Source of the DNA: Candidatus Iainarchaeum sp.
GTDB taxonomy: Archaea; Iainarchaeota; Iainarchaeia; Iainarchaeales; JACQJH01
Assembly: GCA_016205145.1 (NCBI GenBank)
Contig: JACQJH010000001.1
Location: 240,001 to 272,000 of the forward strand
Direction of reading: 5' to 3'
DNA: 32,000 bases
Both the position numbers and the translations under genes were made by a program. Shown in pieces: positions 2,433-25,131 of the stretch (the stretch's first letter is position 1; every line of letters begins with the position of its first letter). The notes below the pieces were generated by a model, which was not told the origin of the DNA, did not search any database, and saw only the letters and a program-made list of their open reading frames with translations.

Positions 2433-2541
2433 TGCCGGTGGCGAGATATGAACTCGCGGCCTCTTGATTATGAGTTTCGCCCCGCAACACAAAAAAGCTG
2501 AATTGCAGTCAAGCGCTCTAACCAGGCTGAGCTACACCGGC
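2433..2541 (-). tRNA. tRNA-Met(CAT) (elongator-type, or Ile2-CAU) with a 34-nt non-canonical intron
   Basis: Hand fold: GCCGGTG TA GCTC AGCCTGGTTA GAGC G CTTGA [34-nt intron, 2475-2508] CTCATAA TCAAG AGGCC GCGAG TTCATAT CTCGC CACCGGC A. The acceptor, D, anticodon and T stems all pair. A T-run follows the 3' end. Confidence 0.8.
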
Positions 2542-7247: not shown

Positions 7248-7261
7248 AAAATATCGGAGAA

Positions 7262-7492
7262 TTGGTTGAAAAGGTTTCATTTTATAAACCGCGACTTGAT
7301 TTCAATGATCGTGCACTTCTTGCAGTTGTTTCTTTTTTTGGTTGTATAATTTCTTCATTAATTTTTTTGTCTGGTATCACTTTCGGTAAACTTAATTTCT
7401 TATCTTTTGCTATGGGATTTGCATTGTTGGGGATAGGCTCATCCTTAATTCTTCTTGTTAGTTGGTTTCTTTTCAACAAAGAAAATGAATGA
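7262..7492 (+). CDS. hypothetical small membrane protein (two predicted TM helices)
   Basis: 76-aa ORF with a TTG start and two hydrophobic stretches (LLAVVSFFGCIISSLIFL, FALLGIGSSLILLVSWFLF). No recognisable homology. Confidence 0.35.
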   Translation: MVEKVSFYKPRLDFNDRALLAVVSFFGCIISSLIFLSGITFGKLNFLSFAMGFALLGIGSSLILLVSWFLFNKENE

Positions 7493-7672: not shown

Positions 7673-7744
7673 AGCCTCTGGCGGGAATTGAACCCGCGAC
7701 CCCGTCCTTACCAAGGACGTGCTCTACCACTGAGCCACAGAGGC
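7673..7744 (-). tRNA. tRNA-Thr(GGT)
   Basis: GCCTCTG TG GCTC AGTGGTA GAGC A CGTCC TTGGTAA GGACG GGGTC GCGGG TTCAATT CCCGC CAGAGGC T gives a perfect cloverleaf. TTTT follows directly after the 3' end. Confidence 0.92.
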
Positions 7745-9834: not shown

Positions 9835-10208
9835 TACTTTTTTGCTTTTTTTGCCTCATTCATTTTCGCTTTTGCTTTAAGGATTTGCCCTATCTCCGCG
9901 GCCGGCGCTTTTTGGTCGAACCTGATTTGAATGGTTTTTTTTCCGGTCACATAACCTTTTTCTTCGAGCGCTTTGCGGTCTTTACTTTGAAGCGCGAACG
10001 CCAGGCCGAAGCCGGCGTGGCTCTTGAATGCGGCAAACCCGGCAAGAAGGCCCTGGTATTTGTAGAATGGCACGCCCCAGCTGATGCTTTCCTCCGCCTT
10101 TGGCACGGCTGATTTGATTATTTTCCTGATTTCCTTGAGCGTCGGCTGCGCTTCTATGCCTGCGCCGGCAATGTACTCGTCGACGTTTTTTGCGCTGTAA
10201 TTTTTCAC
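9834..10208 (-). CDS. DUF1801 (YdhG-like) domain protein
   Basis: (V)KNYSAKNVDEYIAGAGIEAQPTLKEIRKIIKSAVPKAEESISWGVPFYKY... fits the DUF1801 pattern. The GTG start at 10208 overlaps the hisG TAG by 1 nt. The long 219-aa track ORF would overlap hisG. Confidence 0.65.
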   Translation of the reverse strand: MKNYSAKNVDEYIAGAGIEAQPTLKEIRKIIKSAVPKAEESISWGVPFYKYQGLLAGFAAFKSHAGFGLAFALQSKDRKALEEKGYVTGKKTIQIRFDQKAPAAEIGQILKAKAKMNEAKKAKK

Positions 10209-11104
10209 TATTCCACGACCTTGTTCAAGGGAAACTCGACTATGCCTTCCGCGCCGGCACCCTTCAGTTTCGGAATGAGCGTCCTGACGTCGTCTATTTT
10301 GACGATTGTGAGAACGTCGAACCAGCCTTCCTTGGAAAGCTTTGAAACCGTTGGATTGTTCAATGATGGCAGGACTTTGAGGACTTTTTGCAGGTTTTTT
10401 TCCTGCACGTTCATCATCAACCCCGCAAGGGTTTGCGCCGCGATTGCGCCTTTGAGCAGGGTTGCGATTTCGTCGATTTTCTTTCTCTTCCACAAATCCT
10501 TTGCCGCGCCTTTGTTTGCAATCAGTTTCGTGTTGCTTTCCATGAGCGTTTCGACAATGCGCAGGCCGTTCGCGCGCAAACTGCTTCCGGTTTCAGTCAC
10601 TTCAACGATTGCGTCGGCAAGCGTCGGCGGCTTGACTTCGGTTGCGCCCCATGAAAATTCCACTTCGGCTTTGACGTTGTTTTTTGCAAGCCATTCCTTT
10701 GTGAATCCCACAAGTTCGGTTGCGATCCTCTTTCCCTGCAGGTCCTTCACGCCTTTGATTTTCGAGTCGTTCGGCACAGCCAGAACCCATTTGACCCTTC
10801 CAAGGCCGGATTTTGCGTAAACAAGGTCCGCGATTTCGTCAACGCTTGACTTGTTTTCAAGAATCCAGTCCTTTCCCGTCAAGCCAAGGTCGATTGCGCC
10901 CTGTTCGACGTAACGCGACATTTCCTGCGCCCTGATGAGCACGCACTCTATTTCATCGTCGTTTATTTTCGGGTAATACGAGCGCTCTTCCGCGCGGATG
11001 TCATAACCGGCTTTCTTGAACAATTCTATTGTCGAATTCTGCAGGCTTCCCTTGGGGATGCCAAGCTTGAGTTTTTTGCCGCTTCCATCTTCTTTGCCTT
11101 TCAT
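10208..11104 (-). CDS. hisG: ATP phosphoribosyltransferase, long form with a C-terminal regulatory domain
   Basis: [24 protein letters not shown]..., 298 aa, which is the HisG-long length. ATGA overlap with the upstream gene. Confidence 0.92.
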
Positions 11105-12102
11105 TTCAATTCCTCCGCTTTCCTGAAAAAACAGCTCCTCTTGCCCGTGTGACAGGCAACATTGCCTTCCTGCTTCACTTTAAGAAGAATCGCGTCGTTG
11201 TCGCAGTCAAATCTCACTTCCCTGACAATCTGGAAGTTTCCGGAAGTTTCGCCTTTCACCCATAATTTTTGCCTGCTTCTGCTCCAATAGCAGGCCTTTC
11301 CTTCTTTCAGGGTGCGGCGAAGGCTTTCCCTGTTCATGTATGCAAGCATAAGCACTTCTCCCGTATTCCAGTCCTGTGCGATTGCAGGCAGCAGGCCGTT
11401 TCCCTTTTCAAAGTCAAGTTCATCGGGCAGGATGTCGGATAATTTTATCTTGCTAGTGTACAATGACATGCCCAATGCGCAGTCCACGCCGATGCCTTCA
11501 AGCCTGCGCGCCTCTTCAAGCGAGGCAATCCCGCCGGCGGCAATGATGCGGTTTTTCGTTGCCTTGCGAAGCCTTTGCACCGCTTCAAAGTCGATGCCTT
11601 TCATGAGGCCCTCTTTTTCCACGCACGTGAACAGGAATGCAGAGCACAGGCCTTCAAATTCTTTCGCCTTTTGCAAATAATCCGCCCCGGTTTTTTCCTG
11701 CCAGCCTTTCACAACAACCTCGCCTTTCCATGAATCCAATGCAACAATGATTTTTTCCTTTCCAATTTGCGCGCCAAGCTTTTGCAGGAATTCCTTGTTT
11801 GCGGCACTGCCGATGATGACGCGCTTTGCGCCAGCGCCGATGAGCGCTTTGGCTTTTTCCACGCTGTCGATTCCGCCGCCGGTGTTTGCATTCACGACAG
11901 AGCAGATTTTTTTGACGGTTGCGAGATTTGAGCCTATGCGTTTTGCCGCGTCCAAATCAATGACCTGCACTTCCCTGAAAGCGGAGAATTTTTCCGCGAA
12001 TTTTTCGGGAGCAGACGCTATGCGAATCTTCTCGGTTTTGCCCTGCTGCAGCTGGACAACTTTTCTGCCTTTCAAGTCAATGCTTGGCAACAACATTTTC
12101 AT
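11101..12102 (-). CDS. hisA/hisI: fusion: HisA-like ProFAR isomerase (aa 1 to ~225) plus phosphoribosyl-AMP cyclohydrolase HisI (aa ~228-333)
   Basis: N-terminal part: [38 protein letters not shown] (HisA barrel). C-terminal part: [24 protein letters not shown]...[18 protein letters not shown]...[11 protein letters not shown]...[11 protein letters not shown] (HisI). The ATG at 12102 overlaps the hisF TGA (ATGA). Confidence 0.88.
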
Positions 12103-12878
12103 TCCCTCACTACAATTCCCTTTTCTTTCAGGTATGCCTTGACTTTCCACACCGGAAACTCGTTGAAATGGAAAATGCTTGCGGCAAGCGCGGCATCGGC
12201 CTTTCCTGTTTCAAATACATCCACAAAGCTTTCAAGGTTTCCCCCGCCCCCGCTTGCAATGACTGGAACGTTAACGCTTTCCGAAACCGCTTTTGTCAGT
12301 TCGAGGTCGAAGCCCTCTTTTGTTCCGTCGCGGTCCATGCTTGTCAGGAGGATTTCGCCTGCGCCAAGTTCAACCGCTTCTTTCGCCCATTCGAGGGCGT
12401 TTTTTCCCGTGAATTTGCGGCCGCCGTATTTCGAGCACTCCCACCAGACTTTTCCTTTCTCTTCCCTTTTTTTCGCGTCAATCGCCAGCACGACTGCCTG
12501 GTTGCCATACGCTTTTGCAATCTCCGAAATGAGGCGAGGCCTTTCCAGCGCGGCAGTGTTTATGCTTACCTTGTCCGCGCCTGCTTCGAACACACTTTTT
12601 GCGTCCGCCAGTGAGCGTATTCCGCCCCCGACAGTTAACGGCACGAAAACTTCCTGCGCGGTTTTTTCGATTACGTCAACCATTGTTTCTCTTCTCTCGG
12701 AACTTGCGGTGATGTCCAGAAAGACGATTTCGTCAGCGCCCTGCGCGTAATACGCTTCGGCCTGCTCCCACGGCACGCCGGCGTATTTTATTTCCTTGAA
12801 CTGGACTCCTTTGACGACTCTTCCTTGCGCGACCGAAAGGTCGCAGTCCAGACAGGGAATGATTCGTTTTGCGAGCAT
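12099..12878 (-). CDS. hisF: imidazole glycerol phosphate synthase, cyclase subunit
   Basis: [13 protein letters not shown]...VVKGVQF...[11 protein letters not shown]...GGGIRS...; full-length HisF. Confidence 0.95.
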
Positions 12879-12890
12879 TTGAAACCAGTT

Positions 12891-13295
12891 TTATTCTCTA
12901 TTCATTAATTCAGTTTGAACGCGGGTGTACATTGTAATTAATCCATTTGCAATAATGTCCGTTGTGTGTTCGGGCTGTTCTGTCGTGCGTTCGTGTTCTA
13001 TTTCAATGAACCGGTTTATCCTTTCCATTGTGCTTTCAAGGACTTCCGTGGGAATGCTTGTGAGCGGCCTATTGCGTTCAACCAATCTTAGTGTCAGCCT
13101 TTCGAGTTGCTGGTCTGGGCCCAATCCGGTTTCCAGCAATTTTTGCAGTTCCGGAATCACATGTTGCTGGGCCGGCATATCCGTTCCGGGGACGGTATGT
13201 GTCGATTCTCTCACATCTTGCCCAAAATAACCCTGCGCTATATTCCGGAAACGTTCTTTAAGCCCTTCCGGGTGCGCCTCATGTCGTCTCTCCAT
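12891..13295 (-). CDS. hypothetical protein embedded in the his operon (orf134)
   Basis: 134 aa. GAGGTGAT (SD) lies 5 nt upstream of the ATG and overlaps the hisH stop. The composition is poor in Lys and rich in Glu/Arg/Thr/His, unlike neighbouring genes. I could not recognise any family. Confidence 0.6.
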   Translation of the reverse strand: MERRHEAHPEGLKERFRNIAQGYFGQDVRESTHTVPGTDMPAQQHVIPELQKLLETGLGPDQQLERLTLRLVERNRPLTSIPTEVLESTMERINRFIEIEHERTTEQPEHTTDIIANGLITMYTRVQTELMNRE

Positions 13296-13304
13296 AGTAT
13301 CACC

Positions 13305-13907
13305 TCAAATTTCAACAAAATTCTCCAGCACCTTAAGTCCAGCGGCTCCGCTTTTTTCCGGGTGGAATTGCACGGCAAAAACGTTGTCTTTTTCAACAGC
13401 GGAACAGTATTTTCCGCCGTAATCGGTTTCGCCAGAGACGATGTCCTTGTCGAACGGCTTGGCATAATAGCCGTGCACGAAATAAAAGAACGAATTGTCG
13501 GGAACATCCTCGAGCAGCGCGCTTTCCTTTGCCTTTTCGACCTGGTTCCAGCCGATCTGGGGAACTTTCAGGTTTTTTCCTTCAAATTTTTCAACCGTGC
13601 CCTGCAAAACTTTCAGGCCTTCGCTTTCAGGGCTTTCCGCGCTTTCCTCGAACAGCGCCTGGAGGCCGATGCAGATGCCGAGGAAAGGCTTTCCTTCCTC
13701 GATTGCCCATTCGATTGCGTAGTCCAGTTTTTTTTCGCGCAGTTCGCGCATTGCCTCGCCGAAATTGCCCACGCCGGGAAAAACGACCTTGCTCGCTTTT
13801 CCCACCTGTTCAGGAGTTTTCGCAATGACTGCCTTTTCGCCGATTTTTCGGAAGGCGTTGCGGACGCTCTGCAAATTGCCCCTGCCATAATCAATGATTG
13901 CAATCAT
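13305..13907 (-). CDS. hisH: imidazole glycerol phosphate synthase, glutamine amidotransferase subunit
   Basis: MIAIIDYGRGNLQSVRNAF..., GICIGLQ (catalytic Cys), ...QFHPEKS. Confidence 0.95.
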   Translation of the reverse strand: MIAIIDYGRGNLQSVRNAFRKIGEKAVIAKTPEQVGKASKVVFPGVGNFGEAMRELREKKLDYAIEWAIEEGKPFLGICIGLQALFEESAESPESEGLKVLQGTVEKFEGKNLKVPQIGWNQVEKAKESALLEDVPDNSFFYFVHGYYAKPFDKDIVSGETDYGGKYCSAVEKDNVFAVQFHPEKSGAAGLKVLENFVEI

Positions 13908-14536
13908 AGCATTCCCTTGGTGCTCGGCAAAAACTTCTGCCGCCTGTCAAATTCAACCGCGCAACGCAACGCGCGCGCGAAAGCCTTGAACAGCGCTTCA
14001 ACCAGGTGGTGTGCATTCTTTCCGTAAACAACTTTGACGTGGATGTTTGCCTTCAGCTCGTTTGCCACTGCCTGGAAGAATTCTTCCACAAGCTCGGTCG
14101 GAAACCCGCCGATGCGGTCGAGCGGAAACTTTGCGTCGAACACAAGCTTTGGCCTGCCGCTCAAATCAATCGCGCAGAACGCAAGGCTTTCATCCATTGG
14201 CACGTATTCCCAGCCGTACCTTGCAATGCCCTTTTTGTCGCCAAGCGCTTTAGCTATTGCCTGTCCGAGGACAATGCCGGTATCCTCGACAGTGTGGTGC
14301 AAATCCACTTCCAAGTCGCCTTTTGCCTCAAGCGAAACGTCGATGAGGCTGTGCTTGGAGAAAAGTTCGAGCATGTGGTTGAAGAACCCGATTCCGGTTT
14401 CAATTTCATACCTGCCTTCGCCGTCAAGGTTTACCGAGGCTTTGATTTTGGTTTCAGTGGTGTTCCGTTCAATCTCCGCTTTCCTCACGAATGATTTCGC
14501 CTTTTTTTCGTTTGCCTTTCCTTTGCCTTCGCTCAT
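13904..14536 (-). CDS. hisB: imidazoleglycerol-phosphate dehydratase
   Basis: RNTTETKI...GIGFFNHML...DLHHTVEDTGI...NAHH..EA.FKAFARAL; ATGA overlaps at both ends. Confidence 0.95.
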   Translation of the reverse strand: MSEGKGKANEKKAKSFVRKAEIERNTTETKIKASVNLDGEGRYEIETGIGFFNHMLELFSKHSLIDVSLEAKGDLEVDLHHTVEDTGIVLGQAIAKALGDKKGIARYGWEYVPMDESLAFCAIDLSGRPKLVFDAKFPLDRIGGFPTELVEEFFQAVANELKANIHVKVVYGKNAHHLVEALFKAFARALRCAVEFDRRQKFLPSTKGML

Positions 14537-15591
14537 TTCGTTTCACCCAAAACCTTTTCCAGCGCGGAGCAGAATTTTTTCATCTGTTCTGGCGTGCCGA
14601 TGCTGATGCGGATGCAGCCTTCCAGTCTCTCATAACCGCTCCTGTCCCTTACAAGGAAGCCTTTTTCCTTAAGCTTTTCGGCGATTGCTTTGGCGTTTTT
14701 GCCAAAGCGTGCGACGAGAAAATTCGACTTGCTCGGAAAGCGCTTCACGCCTTTTTCGTCAAGGAACTTTTCAAGAATTGCGCGCCCCGCTTCAACCTGT
14801 TTCACATAATCCTGCATGTAAGCCGGGTCCTTCAGCGCTTCCGTTGCCGCGAGCGCGCTCAAAGCGGTGATGCTGTAAGGCGACTTCGCCTTTTTCAGCG
14901 TTGAAATGATTTTTTCGTTTCCCAGAGCGTATCCGATGCGCATTCCGCCGAGGCCCATTGCCTTTGAAAAGGTTTTGAGCACGACAAGGTTGTCGAACTC
15001 TCCAATCCTGCCGGCAACGGTTTCTTTCGTGAATTCCGAGTATGCTTCGTCGACGATTGCCAGGCAGCCTTCCGCCCGCGCGGCCCTGATGATTTCGATG
15101 AGGTCTTTTTCCGGAATTTCGGTGGCAGTCGGATTGTTGGGGTTGCAGAGAATGACTGCCCGGCTGCCCTTGATTTCCGCGAGCACTTTTTGCGTCGGAA
15201 ATGAGAGGTCTTCATTGTACAGCGGCTTTGCAATTTTCGCCCCTTGCAGTTCAGCGTAAAAGTAAAACATGGCAAAGCTCGGAGTCGGAATCACGATCTT
15301 TCCGTTGCCCACAAAGCATTCAATGCATCCGCGGATGGCCTCATCCGAGCCGTTGAAGGGCACGGCGTTTTCCGGCTTCGCGTTGTTGTAATCCGCAATC
15401 GCTTTTGTCAGCTCCGAGTATTCCGGATACGCGGACAGCCTTTCCGCTGAAACGTTTTTGATTGCCGTGAGAACGCGCGGGCTTGGGCCGAGAGTGTTTT
15501 CGTTGAAGTCAAGCCTCATTTTGCCCAGCCTGCTGGCTGTCGGAGGATTGTACGGCTTGAGCTTTTTCACATTGCCGGTTTCGGAAATCAT
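14533..15591 (-). CDS. hisC: histidinol-phosphate aminotransferase
   Basis: LKPYNPP...RLDFNENTLGPSP...NPNNPT...FSKAMGLGGMRIGY (PLP Lys). The start is ambiguous: ATG at 15591 (1 nt after the hisD stop), ATG at 15609, or TTG at 15624. Confidence 0.9.
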   Translation of the reverse strand: MISETGNVKKLKPYNPPTASRLGKMRLDFNENTLGPSPRVLTAIKNVSAERLSAYPEYSELTKAIADYNNAKPENAVPFNGSDEAIRGCIECFVGNGKIVIPTPSFAMFYFYAELQGAKIAKPLYNEDLSFPTQKVLAEIKGSRAVILCNPNNPTATEIPEKDLIEIIRAARAEGCLAIVDEAYSEFTKETVAGRIGEFDNLVVLKTFSKAMGLGGMRIGYALGNEKIISTLKKAKSPYSITALSALAATEALKDPAYMQDYVKQVEAGRAILEKFLDEKGVKRFPSKSNFLVARFGKNAKAIAEKLKEKGFLVRDRSGYERLEGCIRISIGTPEQMKKFCSALEKVLGETK

Positions 15592-15592
15592 T

Positions 15593-17794
15593 TCATTCAC
15601 TTCCCGCATGCTCCGGCTTTCCAAAAAGCTTTGGCAGTTCGTTTATGTCTTTCAACACGGCGTCCGCGCCTTTTTCCAAATAAAATTTTTTGCCCGGCGA
15701 GAACGCGCCCGTCAAAACCATTGCGCAAAAATTGCCTTTCAGCGGGCCGCCCGCGTTTTTCACCATTTCAAGGTCGTCAATCATGTCACCCACATACAAA
15801 ACCTTTTCGGCATTGAGCCTTTTTTTCATCCATTCCAGCGGCGCGGCGTTTGGTTTCAACTTTCCGCCGGTTTCGCTTGCGGTTTCATCCGAAAAAATGT
15901 TTTCTTTTGCAATCGCCGCTGCAAGGCCGCATCTTTCAAGGCAAAGCATTGCTTCGTTGAACGTGCGCCCGGTTATCACGCCGAGCTTTTTGCCGTTGTT
16001 TTTCAGCCACTCGACGGTTTTCCTTGAAACAATCATTTTTTCGTTTTCGCAAAGCCCTTTTTTCACGCCCAATCTTGCCGGTTTGCCGAAAAACTCCGTG
16101 AAACGCCTTTCGCCGAGGTATAGTTCCTCGAACGCGTCCATGATTTTTTCGCGGTCGTATTCGCGTGCAATGCTTTCCCACTTTTGGCCGGCAATCTGCC
16201 TTGCAGCCCTTTCTGCGCCTTCAAAGCCTTTGTCCAAGCCGATTTTCGGGGCGAATTCTTCCCCGCTTACGCGAAAGCCGTTTTTTTGCAGCAACGCAAC
16301 CAGGCTTAAAGCATAGGCAACGTGCCAGTCGTTGTTGAATCCCCCCAAGCGCTTGAACAAAGCGGTTTTCTGCACCGGAAACCTTTTTCCGTACAAAACT
16401 TCGACCGCTTTCACTGTTGCAATCCTGTAAGTGTTGCTTACATCTGCCAGCACGCCGTCAATGTCCAAAACAATCGCGTCAACGCCAGAAAACCCGCTTC
16501 CGGGCGCGCTTTTTCCGCGGTCCAAGCGTATTTCAACGCTTTTTTTGTGCGCTTCAAGGCCCTCGGAATCAGCCATTGCACCAATCGTTTTTTGCAGGCC
16601 TTTCAGGCCTTTTTCAGAGATTTTCTGGAACGCGATGACCTTGACAAAGTCCCTTGCCGACAGGCCAGCGCGTTGTTTTGCCGTTCCGCCGGTTGGCAGG
16701 ACGTGATTTGTGCCGGAACAGTAGTCTCCCGCGGCTACCGGGCTGAAGTCTCCGAGAAAAACGCTTCCAGCCGCGCTTATTTGCGGCAGAAGCCTTTCCG
16801 CCCTGCCGAAAAGCACCAAGTGTTCCGGGCCGATTTGGTTCACGATGCCCGCGCAGTCCTGCAGATCCCTTGCAATGACAACAGCCGAATTGGTTTCAAG
16901 CGCCCTGCGTGCTGTTTCGGCATTCTTTGCTGTTTCAAGCTGAACCGAAAGCGCGGCTTTGGCTTTTTCTGCGAGCGCCCTGTCCGGCGTGACAAGAATG
17001 CAGACGCTGTTTGAGTCGTGCTCGGCCTGCGTCAAAAGCTCGGCCGCAACGATTTTCGCGTCGGCTTTCGAGTCCGCTACAACGCACACCTCGCTCGGCC
17101 CGGCAACAAAATCAATGGAAACCTGGCCGAAAACAAGCCTTTTCGCGGTTGCGACAAAAACGTTTCCCGGCCCGGCAATCTTTTGCACGCGCGGCACGGT
17201 TTTGGTGCCGAATGCCATTGCGGCAATTGCCTGGCTTCCGCCCAGAGTGAAAATCCTGTCCACGCCGGCGATGTCGGCTGCGACAAGCACGAGCGGGTTA
17301 GTGCCATCCTTTTTCGGCGGAGTGCACATCACAATCTCTTTCACGCCCGCGGCTTTCGCAGGCAAGGCATTCATCAAAACGCTTGAAGGCAAAGGATACC
17401 TGCCCGCTGGAACATAAATGCCGACAACGTCCAATGGCCTGACAATTTCCCCAACAACCACGCCTTGCGCATTTTCAGTTTTCCATTCTTTCGGCAGCTG
17501 CCTTTTTGCAAAAGCAAGAATGTTTTTTTTCGCGAGCTTCAAGGCTTCAACCTGTGCCTTCGAAACTTTGGAATAAGCCGCCTTAATCTCCGCACTGCTC
17601 ACTTCCATGCTTTCAGGGGAAAGCCGCACGCCATCGAATTTTTCCGAAAACGCAATCAGCGCGGAATCGCCTTTTTCCCTGACTTCCGCGATAATGCTTC
17701 GGACGGTTTCTTCGACATTCTTGTCCGGCGCCTCCAGCCCGGCAAGGAACGCTTCAAGCTCTCCGGGTTTTTCGGCGGTTATTTCTTTCAGCAT
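15593..17794 (-). CDS. hisD: fusion: histidinol dehydrogenase (~427 aa) plus C-terminal HAD-superfamily phosphatase (~295 aa)
   Basis: HisD part: ...VREKGDSAL..FSEKFDGV...GPGNVFV..AK...QAEHD...GDY.SGTNHVLPT...EGLEAHKKSVEIRL. After the linker DRGKSAPGSGFSG come HAD motifs DIDGV (I), VITGRT (II), K..P (III) and YVGDMIDD (IV). ATG at 17794 (GTG alternative at 17803). Confidence 0.9.
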   Translation of the reverse strand: MLKEITAEKPGELEAFLAGLEAPDKNVEETVRSIIAEVREKGDSALIAFSEKFDGVRLSPESMEVSSAEIKAAYSKVSKAQVEALKLAKKNILAFAKRQLPKEWKTENAQGVVVGEIVRPLDVVGIYVPAGRYPLPSSVLMNALPAKAAGVKEIVMCTPPKKDGTNPLVLVAADIAGVDRIFTLGGSQAIAAMAFGTKTVPRVQKIAGPGNVFVATAKRLVFGQVSIDFVAGPSEVCVVADSKADAKIVAAELLTQAEHDSNSVCILVTPDRALAEKAKAALSVQLETAKNAETARRALETNSAVVIARDLQDCAGIVNQIGPEHLVLFGRAERLLPQISAAGSVFLGDFSPVAAGDYCSGTNHVLPTGGTAKQRAGLSARDFVKVIAFQKISEKGLKGLQKTIGAMADSEGLEAHKKSVEIRLDRGKSAPGSGFSGVDAIVLDIDGVLADVSNTYRIATVKAVEVLYGKRFPVQKTALFKRLGGFNNDWHVAYALSLVALLQKNGFRVSGEEFAPKIGLDKGFEGAERAARQIAGQKWESIAREYDREKIMDAFEELYLGERRFTEFFGKPARLGVKKGLCENEKMIVSRKTVEWLKNNGKKLGVITGRTFNEAMLCLERCGLAAAIAKENIFSDETASETGGKLKPNAAPLEWMKKRLNAEKVLYVGDMIDDLEMVKNAGGPLKGNFCAMVLTGAFSPGKKFYLEKGADAVLKDINELPKLFGKPEHAGSE

Positions 17795-17805
17795 GTAGAC
17801 CACGT

Positions 17806-17870
17806 GCCAAGTAAAGGCTTACTTGGCATATTGCGCAGCAATATGCCTTGGTTTCGCACCCGCCGGGCGA
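17806..17870 (-). repeat. intergenic hairpin element, copy A (between the tRNA-His 3' end and the hisD start)
   Basis: Plus strand: CTTACTTGGC; stem GGCATATTGC (17825-17834) pairs with GCAATATGCC (17838-17847); then TTGGTTTCG. An extra 9-bp hairpin GCCAAGTAA (17806-17814) / TTACTTGGC (17819-17827) lies just upstream of the hisD ATG. Confidence 0.55.
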
Positions 17871-17879
17871 TGACGGCGA

Positions 17880-18104
17880 GGCCTGTGCCGGGAATCGAGC
17901 CCGGGCCGGGGGATAACTGCAACCATGCGGTTTTTCGCAAACCTTTTTGGAAAAGGTTTCTTGCGGTTTTTCGCAAACCTTTTTGGAAAAGGTTTCTTGC
18001 GGTTTTTCGCAAACCTTTTTGGAAAAGGTTTCTTGCGGTTTTTCGCAAACCTTTTTCCAAAAGGTTTCCACAGTCCCCAATGCTGCCACTACACCACACA
18101 AGCC
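17880..18104 (-). tRNA. tRNA-His(GTG) with a 153-nt intron at the canonical 37/38 position
   Basis: 5' exon 18104-18068: G(-1) GCTTGTG TG GTGT AGTGGCA GCAT T GGGGA CTGTGG. 3' exon 17914-17880: A TCCCC CGGC CCGGG CTCGATT CCCGG CACAGGC C. The encoded G-1 sits opposite C73, a tRNA-His hallmark. All four stems pair. Confidence 0.8.
17927..18069 (-). repeat. four tandem copies of a 36-nt unit (GCGGTTTTTCGCAAACCTTTTTGGAAAAGGTTTCTT on the plus strand) filling the tRNA-His intron
   Basis: Units start at 17927, 17963, 17999 and 18035. The first three are identical; the fourth has GG to CC in the loop and is truncated at the exon. Each unit contains the 9-bp palindrome AAACCTTTT/AAAAGGTTT. Confidence 0.95.
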
Positions 18105-18107
18105 ATT

Positions 18108-18161
18108 CGGCGGTTTCGTCCGCCGGGTTCGACGACGGGTACTTCGCTGCGCTCAGTACCC
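18108..18161 (+). repeat. intergenic hairpin element, copy F (abuts the tRNA-His 5' end on the opposite strand)
   Basis: CGGCGG-TTTCGT-CCGCCG (18108-18125), GGTTCGAC (18126-18133), then GGGTACT (18137-18143) pairs with AGTACCC (18155-18161) across an 11-nt loop. Same layout as copy E. Confidence 0.5.
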
Positions 18162-18349
18162 ATCTGTTCTTTTTCGTATTATCCTCTGCCGCTAAAAGGT
18201 TTTCCGCCGCGAATCCAGCCTGAGGGCTGGGTTGCGTTGAAAACAGGCTTTCAGAGTTACTTCTATTCAAGAATTTAAGAGAATTTTCATACGATGTGAA
18301 GTAACTCACTTTTCATTCTGAAAACCTGAAATAATCTGCCTATGCAAGG

Positions 18350-18528: not shown

Positions 18529-18529
18529 T

Positions 18530-18613
18530 TGCAGGAGGGCGGATTCGAACCGCCGAACGCACTAAGCGACAAGGCCCTGAACCTTGCGGGTTTGGCCGCT
18601 TCCCTACCCCTGC
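18530..18613 (-). tRNA. tRNA-Leu(CAG)
   Basis: GCAGGGG TA GGG AAGCGGCCAAA CCC G CAAGG TTCAGGG CCTTG TCGCTTAGTGCGTTC (long variable arm) GGCGG TTCGAAT CCGCC CTCCTGC A. Confidence 0.9.
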
Positions 18614-18678
18614 ATTATGCTAGTATTTGTTTTGGGTTTGTTTTAAGAATATTTTTTTTTGCGCGCCGGAACGCGCTT

Positions 18679-18752
18679 CGACCCCAAGGGGATTTGAACC
18701 CCTGCCAGAGGCTCCGCAAGCCCCCGTGCTGTCCAGGCTACACCATGGGGCC
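18679..18752 (-). tRNA. tRNA-Arg(GCG)
   Basis: GGCCCCA TG GTGT AGCCTGGACA GCAC G GGGGC TTGCGGA GCCTC TGGC AGGGG TTCAAAT CCCCT TGGGGTC G. It is followed 2 nt later by the hairpin GCGCG-TTCCGG-CGCGC (18676-18661). Confidence 0.88.
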
Positions 18753-18837
18753 AGAACTGTCCGGGCAATTTTGCCAGAAGCAATTGTGCTGAAAAAGTCT
18801 TTTTATGGCTTGTGTTGGATTGCCATAATAAAAGCGC

Positions 18838-19716
18838 TTATTCGCGGAACAGTATGAATGCGATTACCGCGAAGAGCGCGGGCAATAGCAGCAGGTTTGT
18901 TTCGGGAATGTTGGTTGCGCTTGTCCGCTTTGACACGCTGAAATAGGCTTCCCTTGAATCGTTGTTCGGATTGGAGTTTGCCGGTGGCGCAAGAGGGTCA
19001 ACTGGCACTATGCTTTTGAGTGTTATTTGCACTTTATAACTGTCTTTGTTTGCAGCAAGTCCCCCCGGCGGATTGTATGAATAGCTGCCGATTGTCAGTT
19101 CAGATTGGTTGGCCGGAACGTTTGAGAATGCGAGCAGGCCCGTGGCACTAATGCTGCCAACCGGCGTTGCCGATGGGCCGGGCGTGAAGGTTCCGCCGGT
19201 TAACGGGGTTCCACTGGTGTCAAAAAATTTGTATTCGGTTTGGAGGTTCACCGGCCCGGAATTGTTATTGTACACGCTGAGTTTTACTGTTATTGGATTG
19301 CCTTCAAAAATGCTTGGCGCCTTCACGTCAATCAGTGCGACGTCGTTGGCGCTGACTGGAACGCAGTGGCCGAGATTGACGCACACGTACAATTCGCTTA
19401 GGGTCAGCTTGCACGTTCCGTTGTCGCAGTGGAAGTTTATTTCGCAGTCCGCGGAGCTTGTGCAGCTTGCCGCGTTTCCTGTGCCGGGCGCCTTTCCGCC
19501 TTTCAGCAGGTCAAGGTCGACGCGATAGTTTGTTCCCTGCTCGGAGTTGCTGCCTTTTGAAACGTAAAAATAGTAGCAGAAATTCGTGCCCGCCGTGAGC
19601 TGTATGCTTGGGTCTGCGGGCGCGGGGCAGGTTACTGCCGCGAATGCGTTGCCTGCAAGGAATGCCATGAACAGCGCAGCTGCCAGCAAAAAAAACTTTT
19701 TTTCCATTTTTTTCAC
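18838..19716 (-). CDS. secreted Cys-containing surface protein with a CARDB-like domain and a C-terminal TM anchor
   Basis: Signal peptide MKKMEKKFFLLAAALFMAFLAGNAFA|AV. The C-terminus ...IPETNLLLLPALFAVIAFILFRE is a short motif, a TM helix, then charged residues. GTGA overlap with the upstream gene (ATG alternative at 19707). Confidence 0.75.
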   Translation of the reverse strand: MKKMEKKFFLLAAALFMAFLAGNAFAAVTCPAPADPSIQLTAGTNFCYYFYVSKGSNSEQGTNYRVDLDLLKGGKAPGTGNAASCTSSADCEINFHCDNGTCKLTLSELYVCVNLGHCVPVSANDVALIDVKAPSIFEGNPITVKLSVYNNNSGPVNLQTEYKFFDTSGTPLTGGTFTPGPSATPVGSISATGLLAFSNVPANQSELTIGSYSYNPPGGLAANKDSYKVQITLKSIVPVDPLAPPANSNPNNDSREAYFSVSKRTSATNIPETNLLLLPALFAVIAFILFRE

Positions 19717-20309
19717 GCGCTTATTCCGACCATGCGGAAAAACTTTTCCACTTTCCCTGTTTCAATGTCGACTATCGCTATGAACGAACCCTTTGCCGCC
19801 GAAGAGAATTCCACGAGGTGCAATTCCTTGTCCGGCAAATTTTGGTATATTATGAACTGCTGTTTTAGTATTTCTTTCTTTTCTATCGTGAGAACGTAGA
19901 CTTTCGCGTCAAAACCTTGGTCCTTCACGTATGCCTGGTAAGTCGCATTGGTTGCTGCAACTTCTATCGCCTTTGCCGTCTTCGCAGAATCGGTTTCCTC
20001 GCTCAATTGTGCGCTTTCTTCGGGTTTGCCTGCCCCCGCACTTGTTTCAGCCTGGCTTGCGGTTGGCTTTTCTGTCACGGTCACAGTGCTGTTTTTGCTG
20101 TCCCGCTCTGCCTGCAGCCGGATTTCATTCATTTCGTTTTCAATGTTTTTCTGGATGTTGGCGTAAGCCAGGTATCCCAGAACAACGGCCAGGATTACCG
20201 CGGCCACCAGAAAGACTATGGTGGCTTTTTTGAATGTACTTCCAGGTTTTGCCGGAGCATCGCTTTTGGCTTCCTTTTTTGCCTGCGTTGCTTTTTTTTG
20301 CGGCACCAA
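19713..20309 (-). CDS. hypothetical N-terminally membrane-anchored protein
   Basis: 198 aa. Lys-rich N-terminus, then the TM helix IVFLVAAVILAVVLGYLAYA. TTG/GTG start. Lies in an operon with surface-protein genes. Confidence 0.6.
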   Translation of the reverse strand: MVPQKKATQAKKEAKSDAPAKPGSTFKKATIVFLVAAVILAVVLGYLAYANIQKNIENEMNEIRLQAERDSKNSTVTVTEKPTASQAETSAGAGKPEESAQLSEETDSAKTAKAIEVAATNATYQAYVKDQGFDAKVYVLTIEKKEILKQQFIIYQNLPDKELHLVEFSSAAKGSFIAIVDIETGKVEKFFRMVGISA

Positions 20310-20341: not shown

Positions 20342-23300
20342 TCAGGACGTGAACGTCACATTGATTGTTTCGGTTGCGCCCGTTGCATTGTCCCTGATTG
20401 TCGCGGTTCCGGTGTGCGGCGTTCCGGGCACAAGCTTGCAGTTTAACGGGTCGATCTGCACCGAAATGATGCCGTTGTTGAATGCCGGCGAGATTGCCGG
20501 GGTGCTGCAGCTTTCGCCTGCAACAGTGGAATTGACAGTGAATGCAACCGTGCCGCTTTGCACGGGCTGGCCGCCGGCCTTCATTATGAAACCGTTAAGG
20601 AAAAGGAAAACGTTCACAGGCTGCAATGTCTGGCCTGAAGTGTTCTGGCAGGTTCCCTGGCAGCAGACCAAGCCGTTTTGCACGTCCTGCACTGTTCCAG
20701 AGCACAATTCAGTTGAAGCATCGCAGGTGTTCCAGCCTTGGTCAGTGCAAGCCTGTTCGAAGTTTGTGGGATTGGTGCATGCAACGTTGCAGCAGACGCC
20801 ATAAGGATAGGTTGCCTGCACGTTCGAGCATGTCTGCAGGCCCGTGCAGTAAATGTTTGTAGAACAGGTCACGACTCCGCCCCCGCCGCCCGGCGCTGTG
20901 TGCCCGTGCTCTAAATCGTATTGGCAGCTTGTCATGAGCGTCGGTGTTCCGGTTGAATTGTCATAAACCTGCAAGGTTATCTGGTGGATTGTCGGGTCCG
21001 TTACCACAGCATAACTGTGGTTTACGCCCGCTGAAAGGTTTGTGATTTGCCCAAATGCAACATCTGCGAACGCGCCCGCGGAATCCCACTTGATTTTTGC
21101 CGTATGGCCGGAGCCGACTGGGTTTGACACGCTTGCCTTGACATTGACTGTTGCGGCATTCGCCGGATAAATGTTTGACGGGTCGACCAGGAGGTTGCAG
21201 CTTGGCGCGTTTCCGCCTGTTCCCCCGGTGCCTCCGCCCCCGGTCAGCACGGGGCTTTGCCTTAAAGTCTTGGTGCACGAATAACCGTCCACATCGGTGT
21301 AAGTGACGTCATAGCTTATCTGGCTTTCGAAATTGTTCTGTCCGTAAGTGCATGTTCCGCCGGAGCTTATTGCCGGCGCGTTGTTTCCGCATGAGATTGT
21401 TCCGGCCGGAGCCGCGTCCGGACTGAAGTTTCCGGCTTCAACCTTTATTTCACCGCCAACTGCGTCAATCTGGTCGATGGCTGCGCCGACGCTTCCATCC
21501 GCATTAACTGTTTTCGTGGTTATCTGGCAGGTTTTTCCTCCGCCGCCCCCTCCGCCATTGTTTGAGCCGCCGTTGCGGAATGGGCAAGTAAGGTCTGCTG
21601 ATATTGTCGGGTCTGCTCCCGTGTTCGGGTTCTTACGGAAAAAAGTTGACCATGCTGCCGCGGTCGGGCTTGGCGTCCAAGTTGAAACGATAAAGTTGTT
21701 GGCCAATATTCCCGTATGGTTGATTGTTCCGCTCCCGCTCCAATTGCATGCGCCCATCGTCACTGCCTGGTTATTGCCTGTGATGCTGGGCACTTCTTCA
21801 ATCTTTATGCCTTTTGTGTCGCCGTAGTCAACAGATACCGTGAGCCGCTTGGAGCCATTCCATATGCCCGTGCCTTGCAGCAACAGCTTGTAGTCCTTGT
21901 CTGTTTCGGCGTTTCCAACTGAAATGACGTGATCGAATGCAGCATTGTTGAATGCCATGCGGCCGCGGACCAATTCAAGGTCTTTTTCTGCCTGAATTCC
22001 CAGATATATGAATGGCATGTCAATGTTTTCAAGCCTTATTCTCGGTGCCGTGATCAGCTTTAAAACATACACGTAGGTTCCGACAAGCTTTATCTCTTCG
22101 TCTGCATCGATTGTCATCTTTTCGTTTCCGTTGCCGTTTTCCGTGCCTTCAAACCGGCTGCCTGAAACGTCGATTTTGTTGGCTTTCAGCAGTTTGATGT
22201 CGTTTCCCCAGCCGTTTTTGAAATTGGTGTTCCGGATGGTCAATGTTTCGTCCGCCTGGATTACCGCGCCGCTGGGGTCTGTTGCAGTGTTGGTGGTCAC
22301 GTCCCAGAATTCCGGGTTGTTTAAAATGGTTATGTTTTTTGCGCGGATTAGGCTTACAATGCTTCCTTCATTGAAATTGCGCTGGTCCAGGCCCTTCCCG
22401 CTGATTGTGATGTTGCCGTTCAATGCCTTGATTTGGGCGTTTGCGCTGTTAGGGCCGATTACTGACCAGAAAGTCGTGTTTGCCAGGTTTATGTTTCCGT
22501 TGGCTGACTCTATTTTTGATATTCCGTTGTTGTTGAGGCCGTCAAAGCCCTGCACGTTTGAAACCGTGATGTTGTTGTTTGCCGTCAAAGCCCCTTTCAT
22601 GAAATGAATGCACCATCCTCCGCCGCAGCTGCTGATGTCGTGGATGTTGATTGAGCCGTTTGGTGCGGTTATTGCCGCCGGGTTTTCAACCGCCTTGCCG
22701 TTTTTCTGCCCGGTTATTTCCAGTGCGGCCTGCGTGCCGTCATCCGGGCCGTTCACGGTTATGGGATAGTAATTGTTCACAAAGCTGATTTTTGAGTTCT
22801 GGCTTTTCATCCTTCCGCCGACGGTTATGCCGCCCGTCGAATACATTTCAACATTTGAAAGGTTTAGGTTTCCGCCAGAATTGATGCCCTGCAGTTCTGT
22901 GCGCGAATTGGAAATTGTTGTCTGCAATGAGCTTTCCAGCTTCGGGTTGTGCCTGACATCGGTTCCGCTTAAAATTATCGAGCCGTTCGTTGCTTTGATC
23001 AGGCGGTCGGTTATGCCGCTGCCGTCAATTGTATACTGTGCGACCGGCCCTTTTCCCGTCATGCTGATTGCCCAGTTGCCCGCAAATTCGCCAGTTCCGC
23101 TTTCATCGGTTCCGCCGGCGGTAATGCTTCCGTTCTGCTGGAAATGCATTCTTGAATTCGTCGTTTTTATTTTGCCTGTTGATGCTGTCACGGGGCCGCT
23201 GATATAGTGTATTTGCGTGTCATTGAGCTTGAGGTTTCCCCTGCACAGCTGGATTTTGTTTGGCAAGTGGATGCCTATGTCCCTCCCGGATGTCCTGCCG

Positions 23301-24331
23301 TCAACGACCATTCCGGCGTCGGCTGTCGGCGCAGTGCAGCCTACTTTTATTTCGCCGTGGTCCGCTATAATAACCGAGTCTGTTGATGTGAATTTGCCTT
23401 CAACAGAGATGTTTGTGGGGCATTCACCGCCCCAGCAGTTTTCTATTTCGCTGTTGGTGAGCGTGAAATTGTTGCCGACGTTTATGCGGCTGGCGTGCAG
23501 TGCGCGCCCGCCGTACAATCCGCTTACCGTGAGGTTTCCGCCTGCCGTAATTGTCGTGCCGGTTTCAGGGGCATGCAGTTCAACCCTTGCGCCGCTCATG
23601 TAAATGTTGTTGCCGGCGTTGATGCTTGCGCTGCCGCCCGCATTGCCAACCAAATCCACTCTGTTGTTTTGCAATGTTATGTTTCCGTTCGGGACGCTGA
23701 GGCTTTTGGCGTAAAGCGCGTAGTTGTCGCGCTGGCCTCCGGCATAAAAGTCGCTTCTGGCGGTGATTGCGCCGTGGTCGGTCCGGATGTTTGAACTGTA
23801 CAGCCAGATTCTCTCCGCAGTCACTATTCCGGGCGCATTCACCTGGATGCGGGCGCTGTCGTTCAATTGCAGGGTTTCGTCAAGGCTTATTGATGTGACA
23901 TCCGCGATTGACGCGCCGTCCCTGCTCGGGCCGGTCGCGCTTATTGAAGTCGCATCAATGGTCATGTCGATTGTTGTCCTGCGCCTTATGACTCCGCTTG
24001 GTTCCCCGCTGGCCGGTCCCCTTATGTCAATAATGAGTTTCCCTGTTGTCGCCTGAGAACCGCTTTTCGTTAGGGCTATCCTGTTTGTTCGCAGCACTCC
24101 GCCGGGCATTATCGTCAAATAGTATGTGCCAAAACCGCGGTCTTCAAGCTGTCCCTTGCCGACCAAAAACTCGTTTATGTGTATTTCGCCTGGGCTGTTG
24201 TCAATGTAGCAGTAAAAGTTGGTTCCGACTTCTTGTTGGTACGAGCAGGCAGTAAGCGCGTTTGCCGCCTGCATTGCCAAGATGAATGCGAATGCCGCCA
24301 CCGCCAAAAGAACCCTTTTTTTCATTGTCAT
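20342..24331 (-). CDS. giant secreted beta-helix-repeat adhesin-like protein with poly-Gly linkers and a Cys-rich C-terminal module
   Basis: 1329 aa with signal peptide MTMKKRVLLAVAAFAFILAMQAANA. There are hundreds of residues of degenerate GN-I-T/L...N repeats (a parallel beta-helix signature), linkers GGSNNGGGGGGGK / GGGGTGGTGGN / GGGGG, and a module rich in C-x-C motifs near aa 1150-1225. Confidence 0.8.
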   Translation of the reverse strand: MTMKKRVLLAVAAFAFILAMQAANALTACSYQQEVGTNFYCYIDNSPGEIHINEFLVGKGQLEDRGFGTYYLTIMPGGVLRTNRIALTKSGSQATTGKLIIDIRGPASGEPSGVIRRRTTIDMTIDATSISATGPSRDGASIADVTSISLDETLQLNDSARIQVNAPGIVTAERIWLYSSNIRTDHGAITARSDFYAGGQRDNYALYAKSLSVPNGNITLQNNRVDLVGNAGGSASINAGNNIYMSGARVELHAPETGTTITAGGNLTVSGLYGGRALHASRINVGNNFTLTNSEIENCWGGECPTNISVEGKFTSTDSVIIADHGEIKVGCTAPTADAGMVVDGRTSGRDIGIHLPNKIQLCRGNLKLNDTQIHYISGPVTASTGKIKTTNSRMHFQQNGSITAGGTDESGTGEFAGNWAISMTGKGPVAQYTIDGSGITDRLIKATNGSIILSGTDVRHNPKLESSLQTTISNSRTELQGINSGGNLNLSNVEMYSTGGITVGGRMKSQNSKISFVNNYYPITVNGPDDGTQAALEITGQKNGKAVENPAAITAPNGSINIHDISSCGGGWCIHFMKGALTANNNITVSNVQGFDGLNNNGISKIESANGNINLANTTFWSVIGPNSANAQIKALNGNITISGKGLDQRNFNEGSIVSLIRAKNITILNNPEFWDVTTNTATDPSGAVIQADETLTIRNTNFKNGWGNDIKLLKANKIDVSGSRFEGTENGNGNEKMTIDADEEIKLVGTYVYVLKLITAPRIRLENIDMPFIYLGIQAEKDLELVRGRMAFNNAAFDHVISVGNAETDKDYKLLLQGTGIWNGSKRLTVSVDYGDTKGIKIEEVPSITGNNQAVTMGACNWSGSGTINHTGILANNFIVSTWTPSPTAAAWSTFFRKNPNTGADPTISADLTCPFRNGGSNNGGGGGGGKTCQITTKTVNADGSVGAAIDQIDAVGGEIKVEAGNFSPDAAPAGTISCGNNAPAISSGGTCTYGQNNFESQISYDVTYTDVDGYSCTKTLRQSPVLTGGGGTGGTGGNAPSCNLLVDPSNIYPANAATVNVKASVSNPVGSGHTAKIKWDSAGAFADVAFGQITNLSAGVNHSYAVVTDPTIHQITLQVYDNSTGTPTLMTSCQYDLEHGHTAPGGGGGVVTCSTNIYCTGLQTCSNVQATYPYGVCCNVACTNPTNFEQACTDQGWNTCDASTELCSGTVQDVQNGLVCCQGTCQNTSGQTLQPVNVFLFLNGFIMKAGGQPVQSGTVAFTVNSTVAGESCSTPAISPAFNNGIISVQIDPLNCKLVPGTPHTGTATIRDNATGATETINVTFTS

Positions 24332-25131
24332 TGCGCATCACCCGGCGCGTTTGTGTCCGGCGGCCCATAGTTTGAGCCGGGGTCGGACATCGGAACCACT
24401 TCCGGCTGGCTGGTTTCCTTCGGAGGAACAAAATCCGGGTCCGGCGTTCCCGCTTCGCAGGCCTCTTTTATGTAATTCCAGTATTCCTGGTCCTGGTTGC
24501 GGGCTTTCATGTTTTCGATTGCCATTTCGTTCCCGATGCCTGCCAGCTTTTCGGAAAGCTTTTCTGCAATGGTTGTGGAAATGCCTGCCACGACTGCCGC
24601 GCCTGGATTGCTGTTGAAAAGCCCTTTGGCGATTTTGTCGGCGCCCGAAATTTCTTCGCGCGCGGACAAGACTTTCTGTTCGGCTGACGGAATAAGCTTT
24701 GCTATTGCACTGCTTGCGCCATCCCCGCAGAGGTTCACTTTTCCGATTTCTTCAAACCCCTGCCTTGCGCCCTCTATCGCGCTTATGGCGTTCAGGGCCG
24801 AATTGTATGCCGCGGTTGTCTGCCCGCCGGTTTGGTCGTCTTTTGCCAGCAGAGCAACGCCCTGCTTGAGTTCGGCTATTTTTGCGCCGGTCATGGGCTT
24901 GTCGTCCGGGCCGCTTGCCGCGAGATAAGAGTCAATTTCGGTTGTGATTGCCGAATAGTCCGCGATTTTTGCGTTGTTTTGCGGCACGGCTTTTTGTTCC
25001 ACGGGCTTGGGCGCGAGCACGTTTCCGAACGCGAAGCCGATTGCAATGAGCACAACCAGTATTCCGACGAATGCCGCGGGCTTCAAGGTTACGGCGTTGT
25101 CCTTGAGGAACTGCAAACCCATGTTCTTCAC
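24328..25131 (-). CDS. hypothetical N-terminally membrane-anchored protein with a Pro-rich C-terminal tail
   Basis: 267 aa with TM helix AAFVGILVVLIAIGFAFGNVL. First gene of the surface-protein operon; its TGA overlaps the next ATG. GTG start at 25131 (ATG alternative at 25122). Confidence 0.6.
   Translation of the reverse strand: MKNMGLQFLKDNAVTLKPAAFVGILVVLIAIGFAFGNVLAPKPVEQKAVPQNNAKIADYSAITTEIDSYLAASGPDDKPMTGAKIAELKQGVALLAKDDQTGGQTTAAYNSALNAISAIEGARQGFEEIGKVNLCGDGASSAIAKLIPSAEQKVLSAREEISGADKIAKGLFNSNPGAAVVAGISTTIAEKLSEKLAGIGNEMAIENMKARNQDQEYWNYIKEACEAGTPDPDFVPPKETSQPEVVPMSDPGSNYGPPDTNAPGDAQ

Follow-up and report, generated by a model that had tools for sequence, protein, structure and literature searches.

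A histidinol dehydrogenase fused to a predicted histidinol-phosphate phosphatase of the HAD superfamily in the his operon of Candidatus Iainarchaeum

In the present work, we analyse a gene of Candidatus Iainarchaeum sp. that lies in a 32,000-nucleotide stretch of contig JACQJH010000001.1 (GenBank assembly GCA_016205145.1, positions 240,001 to 272,000), here called the window. The gene, hisD::hisN (15593..17794, minus strand), is a single open reading frame (ORF) that encodes 733 amino acids (aa) from an ATG at 17794 and carries both the Pfam Histidinol_dh domain and a HAD domain. We will argue that its product is very probably a bifunctional histidinol-phosphate phosphatase (HolPase) and histidinol dehydrogenase (HisD) that arose by fusion of adjacent genes. 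This reading is built on sequence comparison with a recently characterised archaeal phosphatase, and on the recurrence of the same phosphatase domain beside, or fused to, other enzymes of histidine biosynthesis.

The uninterrupted minus-strand frame extends over 15593-17803, with the stop codon at 15593-15595, and would give a product of 736 aa if begun at the GTG at 17803. This GTG-based 736-aa count is used for residue numbers of the fusion protein throughout. The true start is, however, probably the ATG three codons in, at 17794, which is the start in the gene calls of two other assemblies and agrees with the alignment to the homologue P0020. In an exact protein look-up, moreover, the 733-aa ATG product was matched, while the 736-aa GTG product was not. 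The bounds that a preliminary description of this DNA had given for the phosphatase domain, 15596-16483, begin at residue 441 on the GTG count; the start of the gene itself is revised as above.

The HisD domain occupies residues 4-427 (16523..17794, minus strand) and ends in ...EGLEAHKKSVEIRL (residues 414-427). Its Pfam Histidinol_dh match covers residues 27-427 with an E-value of 1e-157, and the NCBIfam model TIGR00069 (hisD) is matched over positions 1-393 of 393 with 511.5 bits, the cutoff being 243.8. Residues 23-424 align with residues 28-427 of Escherichia coli HisD (1k75; E 3e-94), and the histidine of the EGLEAH motif, H419 (codon 16547-16549), falls on residue 419 of the E. coli enzyme. 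By these measures, this half of the fusion is a complete HisD.

It is followed by a linker of 14 residues, DRGKSAPGSGFSGV (residues 428-441; 16481..16522, minus strand), which was delimited with the help of the corresponding junctions at three related loci (L008, L009 and L010). The remaining 295 residues (442-736; 15596..16480, minus strand) form the HAD phosphatase domain, the predicted HolPase. Pfam PF00702 spans residues 441-685, with E-values of 7e-13 for the whole protein and 2e-13 for the domain alone, and PF13419 (HAD_2) also matches. All four HAD motifs are located on the minus strand: motif I, DIDGV (residues 447-451; 16451..16465), with the nucleophile D447 and with D449; motif II, VITGRT (609-614; 15962..15979), with T611; motif III, KLKPN (648-652; 15848..15862), with the lysine K650; and motif IV, GDMIDD (672-677; 15773..15790), with D673 and D677. 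In a 28-sequence alignment of the domain's family (A1), the D, D, G and V of motif I are invariant, as are R613, K650, P651, G672, D673 and D677 in addition to D447 and D449, and T611 and D676 are conserved in at least 90% of the sequences. The C-terminal domain is thus, as judged from its sequence, a phosphatase of the HAD superfamily with the four catalytic motifs intact. These results confirm two statements of the preliminary description, namely that HisD and a C-terminal HAD domain are united in one protein, and that the four motifs are present at the places given.

The AlphaFold2 (AF2) model of the HAD domain, which has a pLDDT of 94.5, has a single large insertion, made up entirely of some eight helices, that separates motif I from the second core strand; there is no second insertion. 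In domain numbering, the helices of this cap comprise residues 18-31, 39-44, 52-67, 74-81, 86-108, 111-123, 125-132 and 144-147, flanked by strands 3-6 and 166-170. On this model, the cap fits the description of the type found in nmHisN and toHisN, the HolPases of Nitrosopumilus maritimus and Thermococcus onnurineus.

nmHisN (Nmar_1556) was named by Kinateder et al. 2024 (PMC10804674), who located its gene between those of HisC and HisB. The enzyme was found to be a specific HolPase with a kcat/KM of about 1e4 M^-1 s^-1, and rejected nine other phosphoesters; it is a monoesterase that hydrolyses neither ATP nor PRPP. Its critical residues are Y24, D25, K56 and E64, and its single large helical cap has nine helices, that of toHisN having seven. 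The corresponding fingerprint of toHisN is Y-D-R-D, with Asp at the last position, as in the window domain (PMC10804674). Lee et al. 2008, as cited in PMC10804674, is a further source on these archaeal HAD-type HolPases.

Our connection to nmHisN was established by a genome scan with an alignment from TACK archaea, which led to Nitrosopumilaceae loci; the profile search with A1 had listed no Nitrosopumilus. Nmar_1556 is here represented by congeneric Nitrosopumilaceae orthologues, chosen by taxon, by their place in the order hisC-HAD-hisB and by the YDKE fingerprint. The HAD gene of Nitrosopumilus sp. DT_77 that sits between hisC and hisB (L020) encodes 322 aa, with Y-D-K-E at the expected spacing. 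The domain of the window aligns with this protein end to end in BLASTP (26% identity over 306 aa, E 1e-20), and hhalign of A1 against an alignment of eight Nitrosopumilaceae orthologues (A3) gives a probability of 100% and an E-value of 3.8e-45 over 307 columns. In the fingerprint alignment, the partners of Y459, R460, K484 and D492 of the window are Y, D, K and E. The first pair belongs to the segment YRIA (16418..16429, minus strand), which aligns pairwise with Y24-D25 through the Nitrosopumilus orthologue; the second pair belongs to KRLGGFNNDW (16325..16354, minus strand), where K484 corresponds to K56 and D492 to E64. The K..GGFNNDW cap signature thus holds two residues that are critical in nmHisN, with the same spacing of 8 from the lysine to the acidic residue as in the Nitrosopumilus orthologue, and in A1 its K44, N50 and W53 (counted within the domain) show no variation. 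Three of the four specificity residues of nmHisN are accordingly retained (Y, K and D/E), the fourth being Arg for Asp.

The best NCBIfam model for the domain is TIGR01548, all 197 positions of which (1-197) are matched. Secondary NCBIfam matches, to models of phosphoglycolate phosphatase and of PpaX, all stay far under their cutoffs. TIGR01548 is a hypothetical equivalog, annotated as 'TIGR01548 family HAD-type hydrolase', and a literature search on it found nothing relevant. From the profile, fingerprint, cap and structure matches taken together, the domain is, at the level of sequence, placed in the clade nearest TIGR01548 that includes nmHisN and toHisN, as a Y-R-K-D subtype. Two other identities were considered and rejected. 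The DDDD-type HisB-N model TIGR01656 reaches only 21.2 bits against a cutoff of 84.15, over domain residues 208-246 only, and the domain has a large cap. For the HAD-IB type resembling phosphoserine phosphatase (PSP), the archaeal model TIGR01491, which is not specific to the Pseudomonas enzyme paHisN, reaches 19.3 bits against 151.9.

We now consider whether the two domains truly belong to one gene. The nearest relatives keep their hisD and phosphatase genes apart by only 22-23 nt, so that even a small sequencing or assembly error, by deleting the hisD stop codon, could have joined the neighbours. However, gene calls on contigs of the SRR12113383 and SRR12113384 assemblies give exactly the same 733-aa product, and a protein of the same architecture, P0020 (730 aa, 85% identical), is present in two further data sets, ENA ERZ27293400 and JGI Ga0066639. 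The linker of P0020 (contig L010), GAGKNVPLGAISNV, is of another sequence and still in frame, and the junction comparison revealed no start-codon or Shine-Dalgarno remnant in the linker of the window. With four independent data sets against it, we count the artefact as effectively refuted and give it next to no likelihood; the fusion is genuine.

The closest unfused relatives, P0021 (38% identity, 'Candidatus Diapherotrites archaeon') and P0022 (43%), are encoded by free-standing genes located 22-23 nt downstream of hisD in metagenome-assembled genomes (MAGs) of Diapherotrites (L008, L009). The operon order at these loci is hisD-HAD-hisC-hisB-hisH-hisF-hisA-hisI-hisG, where two His_biosynth genes are observed and the placement of hisF before hisA is assigned by analogy with the window. 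The family-B DNA polymerase and M24-peptidase neighbours of the window are also present at one of the two loci. In a neighbour-joining tree, the window sequence groups with P0020 (bootstrap 100), within a clade that also contains P0021 and P0022 (bootstrap 100). The linker takes up the place that, in the relatives, is occupied by the stop codon of hisD, a spacer of 22-23 nt and the N-terminal tail of the free HAD gene. The free genes adjacent to hisD and the nesting in the tree thus point to a recent fusion of adjacent genes, with loss of the hisD stop and the spacer. It would have occurred in a narrow, Diapherotrites-related DPANN lineage in which the phosphatase gene was already directly downstream of hisD, an in-frame linker taking the place of the stop codon and the short spacer. 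At L008 (GCA_964540145.1), there is also a second HAD_2-type gene (203 aa, 6708-7319) directly upstream of hisD, so that two HAD genes flank hisD.

To collect relatives of the domain, 1.84 billion representative proteins were searched exhaustively, and the best 150 of 970 matches were examined. This search was used in place of a first word-index search with the HAD domain, whose 19 matches included neither the fused nor the closest relatives. Among the best 150 of the 970 matches, fusion to HisD is found in one cluster only. A word-index query spanning the junction returned HisD-only proteins and not the query itself, and is uninformative on how frequent the fusion is. Four loci from a metagenome scan (L041, L042, L048 and L049) were tried as further fusions and rejected, being free-standing HAD genes with N-terminal extensions.

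Across the relatives of the domain, the association with histidine biosynthesis recurs. In a bacterial MAG (L006), a relative is free-standing between hisC and hisB, which is also the position of the Nitrosopumilus gene. At least seven clusters at 50% identity have the HAD domain fused to the C-terminus of an aminotransferase; of the five of them that were scanned with the hisC model TIGR01141, three were above the cutoff and two just under it. One protein, P0079, is a HisG-HisC::HAD fusion whose HisC part is over the TIGR01141 cutoff. The two HisC-type fusions whose context was checked both lie within his operons (L051, L052). The upstream (Y/F)R and the K..GG.NNDW signature recur in the HisC-fused and his-operon relatives. 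HisC::HAD and HisG::HisC::HAD proteins with the same cap signature are P0053, P0088, P0112, P0151, P0169, P0106, P0119 and P0079, all on metagenome contigs, and neither kind of fusion was described in the literature searched.

The operon supplies the remaining context. The fusion gene is overlapped at its end, by 17 nt, by the start of hisC (histidinol-phosphate transaminase; 14533..15609, minus strand, coordinates mapped from L001), the product of which scores 294 bits with TIGR01141 against a cutoff of 276.6. Further downstream, over 10208..14536 and all on the minus strand, follow hisB, which encodes only imidazoleglycerol-phosphate dehydratase (IGPD; 13904-14536), hisH (13305-13907), an ORF of 134 aa called orf134 between hisH and hisF (12891-13295), hisF (12099-12878), a hisA::hisI fusion (11101-12102/12150) and a long-form hisG (10208-11104). 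The his set of the window is thus HisG, HisI with phosphoribosyl-AMP cyclohydrolase (PRA-CH) only, HisA, HisH, HisF, HisB with IGPD only, HisC and HisD. In the window ORFs tested, no member of the PR-ATP pyrophosphohydrolase (PRA-PH)/MazG, PHP or inositol monophosphatase (IMPase) families was detected, and no other type of HolPase was found in the 32-kb window, so that the HolPase and HisE steps are the only ones there that have no conventional gene. The family scans are in this respect in agreement with the preliminary description, which had stated that the window covers every his step except these two. It had also proposed the C-terminal HAD domain as the missing HolPase of the operon, a proposal that the homology to nmHisN orthologues, the cap signature and the his-linked relatives support.

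Several observations weigh against the assignment as HolPase. With TIGR01548, the isolated domain reaches 115.6 bits and the full protein 113, below the cutoff of 140.2; the close relative P0021 reaches 139.5 bits. D25, which is critical in nmHisN, is R460 in the window domain. Arg at this position characterises the euryarchaeal 'cluster II' and some delta-proteobacterial sequences, and for cluster II it 'puts the HolPase function into question' according to the authors of the nmHisN study (PMC10804674). The same study assigns the pattern Y-R-K-D to cluster II as well as to the delta-proteobacterial clusters and terms them likely but unproven HolPases (PMC10804674). For Arg-type members a HolPase role is predicted; the characterised nmHisN has Asp. 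The haloarchaeal members of the clade are, in addition, not beside his genes, and the view taken here is that of the 32-kb window, so that a canonical HolPase may be encoded elsewhere in the genome. On the other side, fusions have formed independently with the enzymes that flank the HolPase step, which argues that Arg at the D25 position would be compatible with HolPase function. As to the haloarchaeal setting, the TIGR01548 gene is there situated just downstream of a UPF0146 gene (L003, 6779-7177; L005, 7435-7905), a context with no his genes, and in one cluster (P0025) UPF0146 is itself fused to the HAD domain.

The domain could instead be a phosphatase of other or broad specificity, acting for example on phosphoglycolate, a sugar phosphate or phosphoserine, outside histidine synthesis. 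The Arg in place of D25 and the location of the haloarchaeal relatives outside his clusters would fit such a role, as would the secondary matches to phosphoglycolate phosphatase and PpaX models, far below cutoff as these are. Tt82 of Thermococcus thioreducens, a structural relative, is reported to have diverse substrate specificity. However, the his association has been arrived at repeatedly, in two free-standing operon positions and in fusions to HisC, to HisG-HisC and to HisD; nmHisN rejected the nine other phosphoesters; and the operon would otherwise be left with no HolPase. We therefore regard an unrelated specificity as unlikely.

A still less probable option is that the domain supplies, alone or additionally, the PR-ATP pyrophosphohydrolase (HisE) step. 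HisE is indeed lacking in the window, where HisI comprises PRA-CH only and PRA-PH/MazG is not found, and the related operons L008 and L009 also have no hisE. Some HAD proteins are pyrophosphatases, with PpaX among the weak profile matches and BT2127 structures among the structural matches, and HisE is missing in 9% of prototrophs (GapMind 2026 analysis). Against this, a family member coexists with HisIE in one operon (L006), the related monoesterase nmHisN left both ATP and PRPP intact, and the fusion partners, HisC and HisD, are those that flank the HolPase step, HisI not being among them. The reading of the fusion as a HolPase joined to HisD is the one that we retain.

In the mechanism that would follow, L-histidinol phosphate is made by HisC, the product of the next gene. 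The HAD domain would act on it as a Mg2+-dependent phosphatase with an Asp nucleophile and one large helical cap, releasing L-histidinol, with D447 forming an aspartyl-phosphate intermediate as the phosphate is removed. The N-terminal HisD domain would then convert histidinol to histidine in two NAD+-dependent oxidations. With both activities on one polypeptide, the last three reactions of the pathway would be carried out by a single protein. The comparisons establish what the two domains are, that their catalytic motifs are intact, which family the HAD domain belongs to, its synteny and that the fusion is genuine; the HolPase specificity and a kinetic benefit of the fusion are both inferred.

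Solved structures of HisD show a dimer in which the C-terminal domain of one subunit completes the active site of the other. The HAD domain of the fusion begins about 22 residues past the histidine that aligns with E. coli H419, which would bring it near a HisD active site. A proximity effect between the two sites is plausible but unproven, and channelling of histidinol, which the preliminary description had suggested, would be purely conjectural; a fixed stoichiometry is an equally good rationale for the fusion. An extended version holds that the protein is a proximity-channelling machine for three reactions, and that the whole Y-R-K-D/TIGR01548 clade, which extends over haloarchaea, Armatimonadota, DPANN and other groups, would supply the HolPase in many genomes whose annotation still has a gap at this step. 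The HisD::, HisC:: and HisG-HisC:: fusions speak for the clade-wide part as gene-fusion evidence, and we put this version forward only tentatively, with doubts that outweigh our belief in it.

The comparison with known systems shows what is shared and what is not. With nmHisN and toHisN, the window domain has in common the HAD clade, the single large helical cap, the K..GG.N.(D/E) motif with the upstream Tyr, and the association with a his operon. It differs from nmHisN in that the identity is about 26%, Arg replaces Asp25, and the Tyr-Lys segment is 7 residues shorter. It is also fused to HisD, whereas toHisN is monofunctional and nmHisN was purified as the monomeric product of a single gene (PMC10804674). 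The mostly haloarchaeal TIGR01548 proteins (HAD-SF-IA-hyp1) have an identical Y-R-K-D fingerprint, with 33-38% identity for the haloarchaeal members, but these members are free-standing and outside his clusters, while the window domain is fused and in a his operon. The closest solved structure by sequence is that of Tt82 (PDB 6IAH; profile E 2.5e-34), which is also at rank 2 in a Foldseek comparison with the AF2 model (TM 0.68/0.82). Tt82 has the toHisN-type fingerprint Y-D-R-D, 240 aa and a smaller cap, is free-standing, and is 26% identical to the window domain.

E. coli HisB (HisNB) is likewise a HAD HolPase fused to a his enzyme, derived from adjacent genes (PMC1963479). There, however, the phosphatase is N-terminal and of the DDDD type with no large cap, and the partner, IGPD, catalyses a non-consecutive step. 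TIGR01656 (HisB-N) matches the window domain only around motif IV, and the HisB of the window is IGPD only. In fungal HIS4 (HisI-HisE-HisD), HisD is also part of a multifunctional polypeptide (PMC1963479), but its partners are N-terminal HisIE domains, the steps are non-consecutive and the protein is eukaryotic; the HisIE-HisD fusion was not found in Archaea by a 2024 survey. Finally, paHisN (PA0335) is another HAD-superfamily HolPase, which differs from the window domain in its unrelated cap and its fingerprint D16-D18-Y47, and this type has been judged to have evolved independently (PMC10804674).

The known HolPase types had been listed in the preliminary description as the HisB-N, PHP and IMPase-like ones. 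This list is incomplete, as it omits the PSP-like HAD enzyme paHisN (PMC5764234, PMC10804674) and the HAD enzymes nmHisN and toHisN (PMC10804674). The accompanying view that HisD::HAD is a distinct solution is correct for the architecture, which appears to be new, and not for the phosphatase, which is a member of the published nmHisN/toHisN family and therefore not a new solution. The his fusions in reviews and surveys are HisNB, HisIE, HIS4 (HisIE-HisD) and HIS7, and fusion of HisD or HisC with this phosphatase is not mentioned in the his-fusion surveys, the nmHisN paper or the other literature searched. The HisD::HolPase architecture hence appears undescribed so far.

The HolPase is the step most often missing from reconstructions of amino-acid pathways, being absent in 20% of 208 prototrophic genomes (GapMind 2026). 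It was not until 2024 that this HAD family was shown to hold a real HolPase, and this applies to the Asp-containing type of Nitrosopumilus alone; the Arg branch is still listed by NCBI as 'TIGR01548 family HAD-type hydrolase'. The fusions to HisD, HisC and HisG-HisC constitute a classic gene-fusion argument for a role of the Arg branch in histidine synthesis, and they are natural test constructs. The architecture also adds a new kind of fusion, one that joins consecutive steps, to a pathway that has long been a model for the evolution of gene fusions, and the operon of the same lineage carries a second consecutive-step fusion, HisA::HisI. As both the family of the enzyme and its role are on record in the literature, the gain is incremental and not fundamental.

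In the HisA::HisI protein, HisA corresponds to residues ~20-240 and HisI (PRA-CH) to ~240-346. The two are not joined at L008 and L009 of the Diapherotrites relatives, where hisA and hisI overlap as distinct genes; for DPANN, the 2024 survey mentions HisA/F-HisIE fusions as rare. As the window contains no HisE, orf134 may be considered a weak candidate for this gap. It has a Shine-Dalgarno-like site, GAGGTGA, 5 nt upstream of its ATG, is predicted to be all-helical, and is absent from the equivalent slot in L008 and L009. It gave no Pfam or NCBIfam match even at E<=10, and its single-sequence AF2 model is too poor to be used (pLDDT 52).

A tandem array of a 36-nt unit (4.0 copies, 98% matches), with two short palindromes in each copy, occupies 17926-18068, about 130-270 nt upstream of where hisD begins. 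The array is absent from contig L010. The 173-aa 'ORF' that covers it (17788-18309, minus strand) contains KGLRKTARNLFQ four times and is probably no gene.

Four consecutive minus-strand ORFs between 18838 and 25131 have no Pfam match: 18838-19716 (292 aa), 19713-20309 (198 aa), 20342-24331 (1329 aa) and 24328-25131 (267 aa). Ordinary tRNAs are those for Thr (7673-7744), Leu (18529-18614) and Arg (18678-18753). At 2433-2541 (minus strand), a match of 109 nt to the full Rfam tRNA model, absent from the ARAGORN results, probably represents a tRNA with an intron. An archaeal origin of the window is consistent with this tRNA, with the gene for a family-B DNA polymerase (26201-28615) and with a synteny that resembles that of Diapherotrites.

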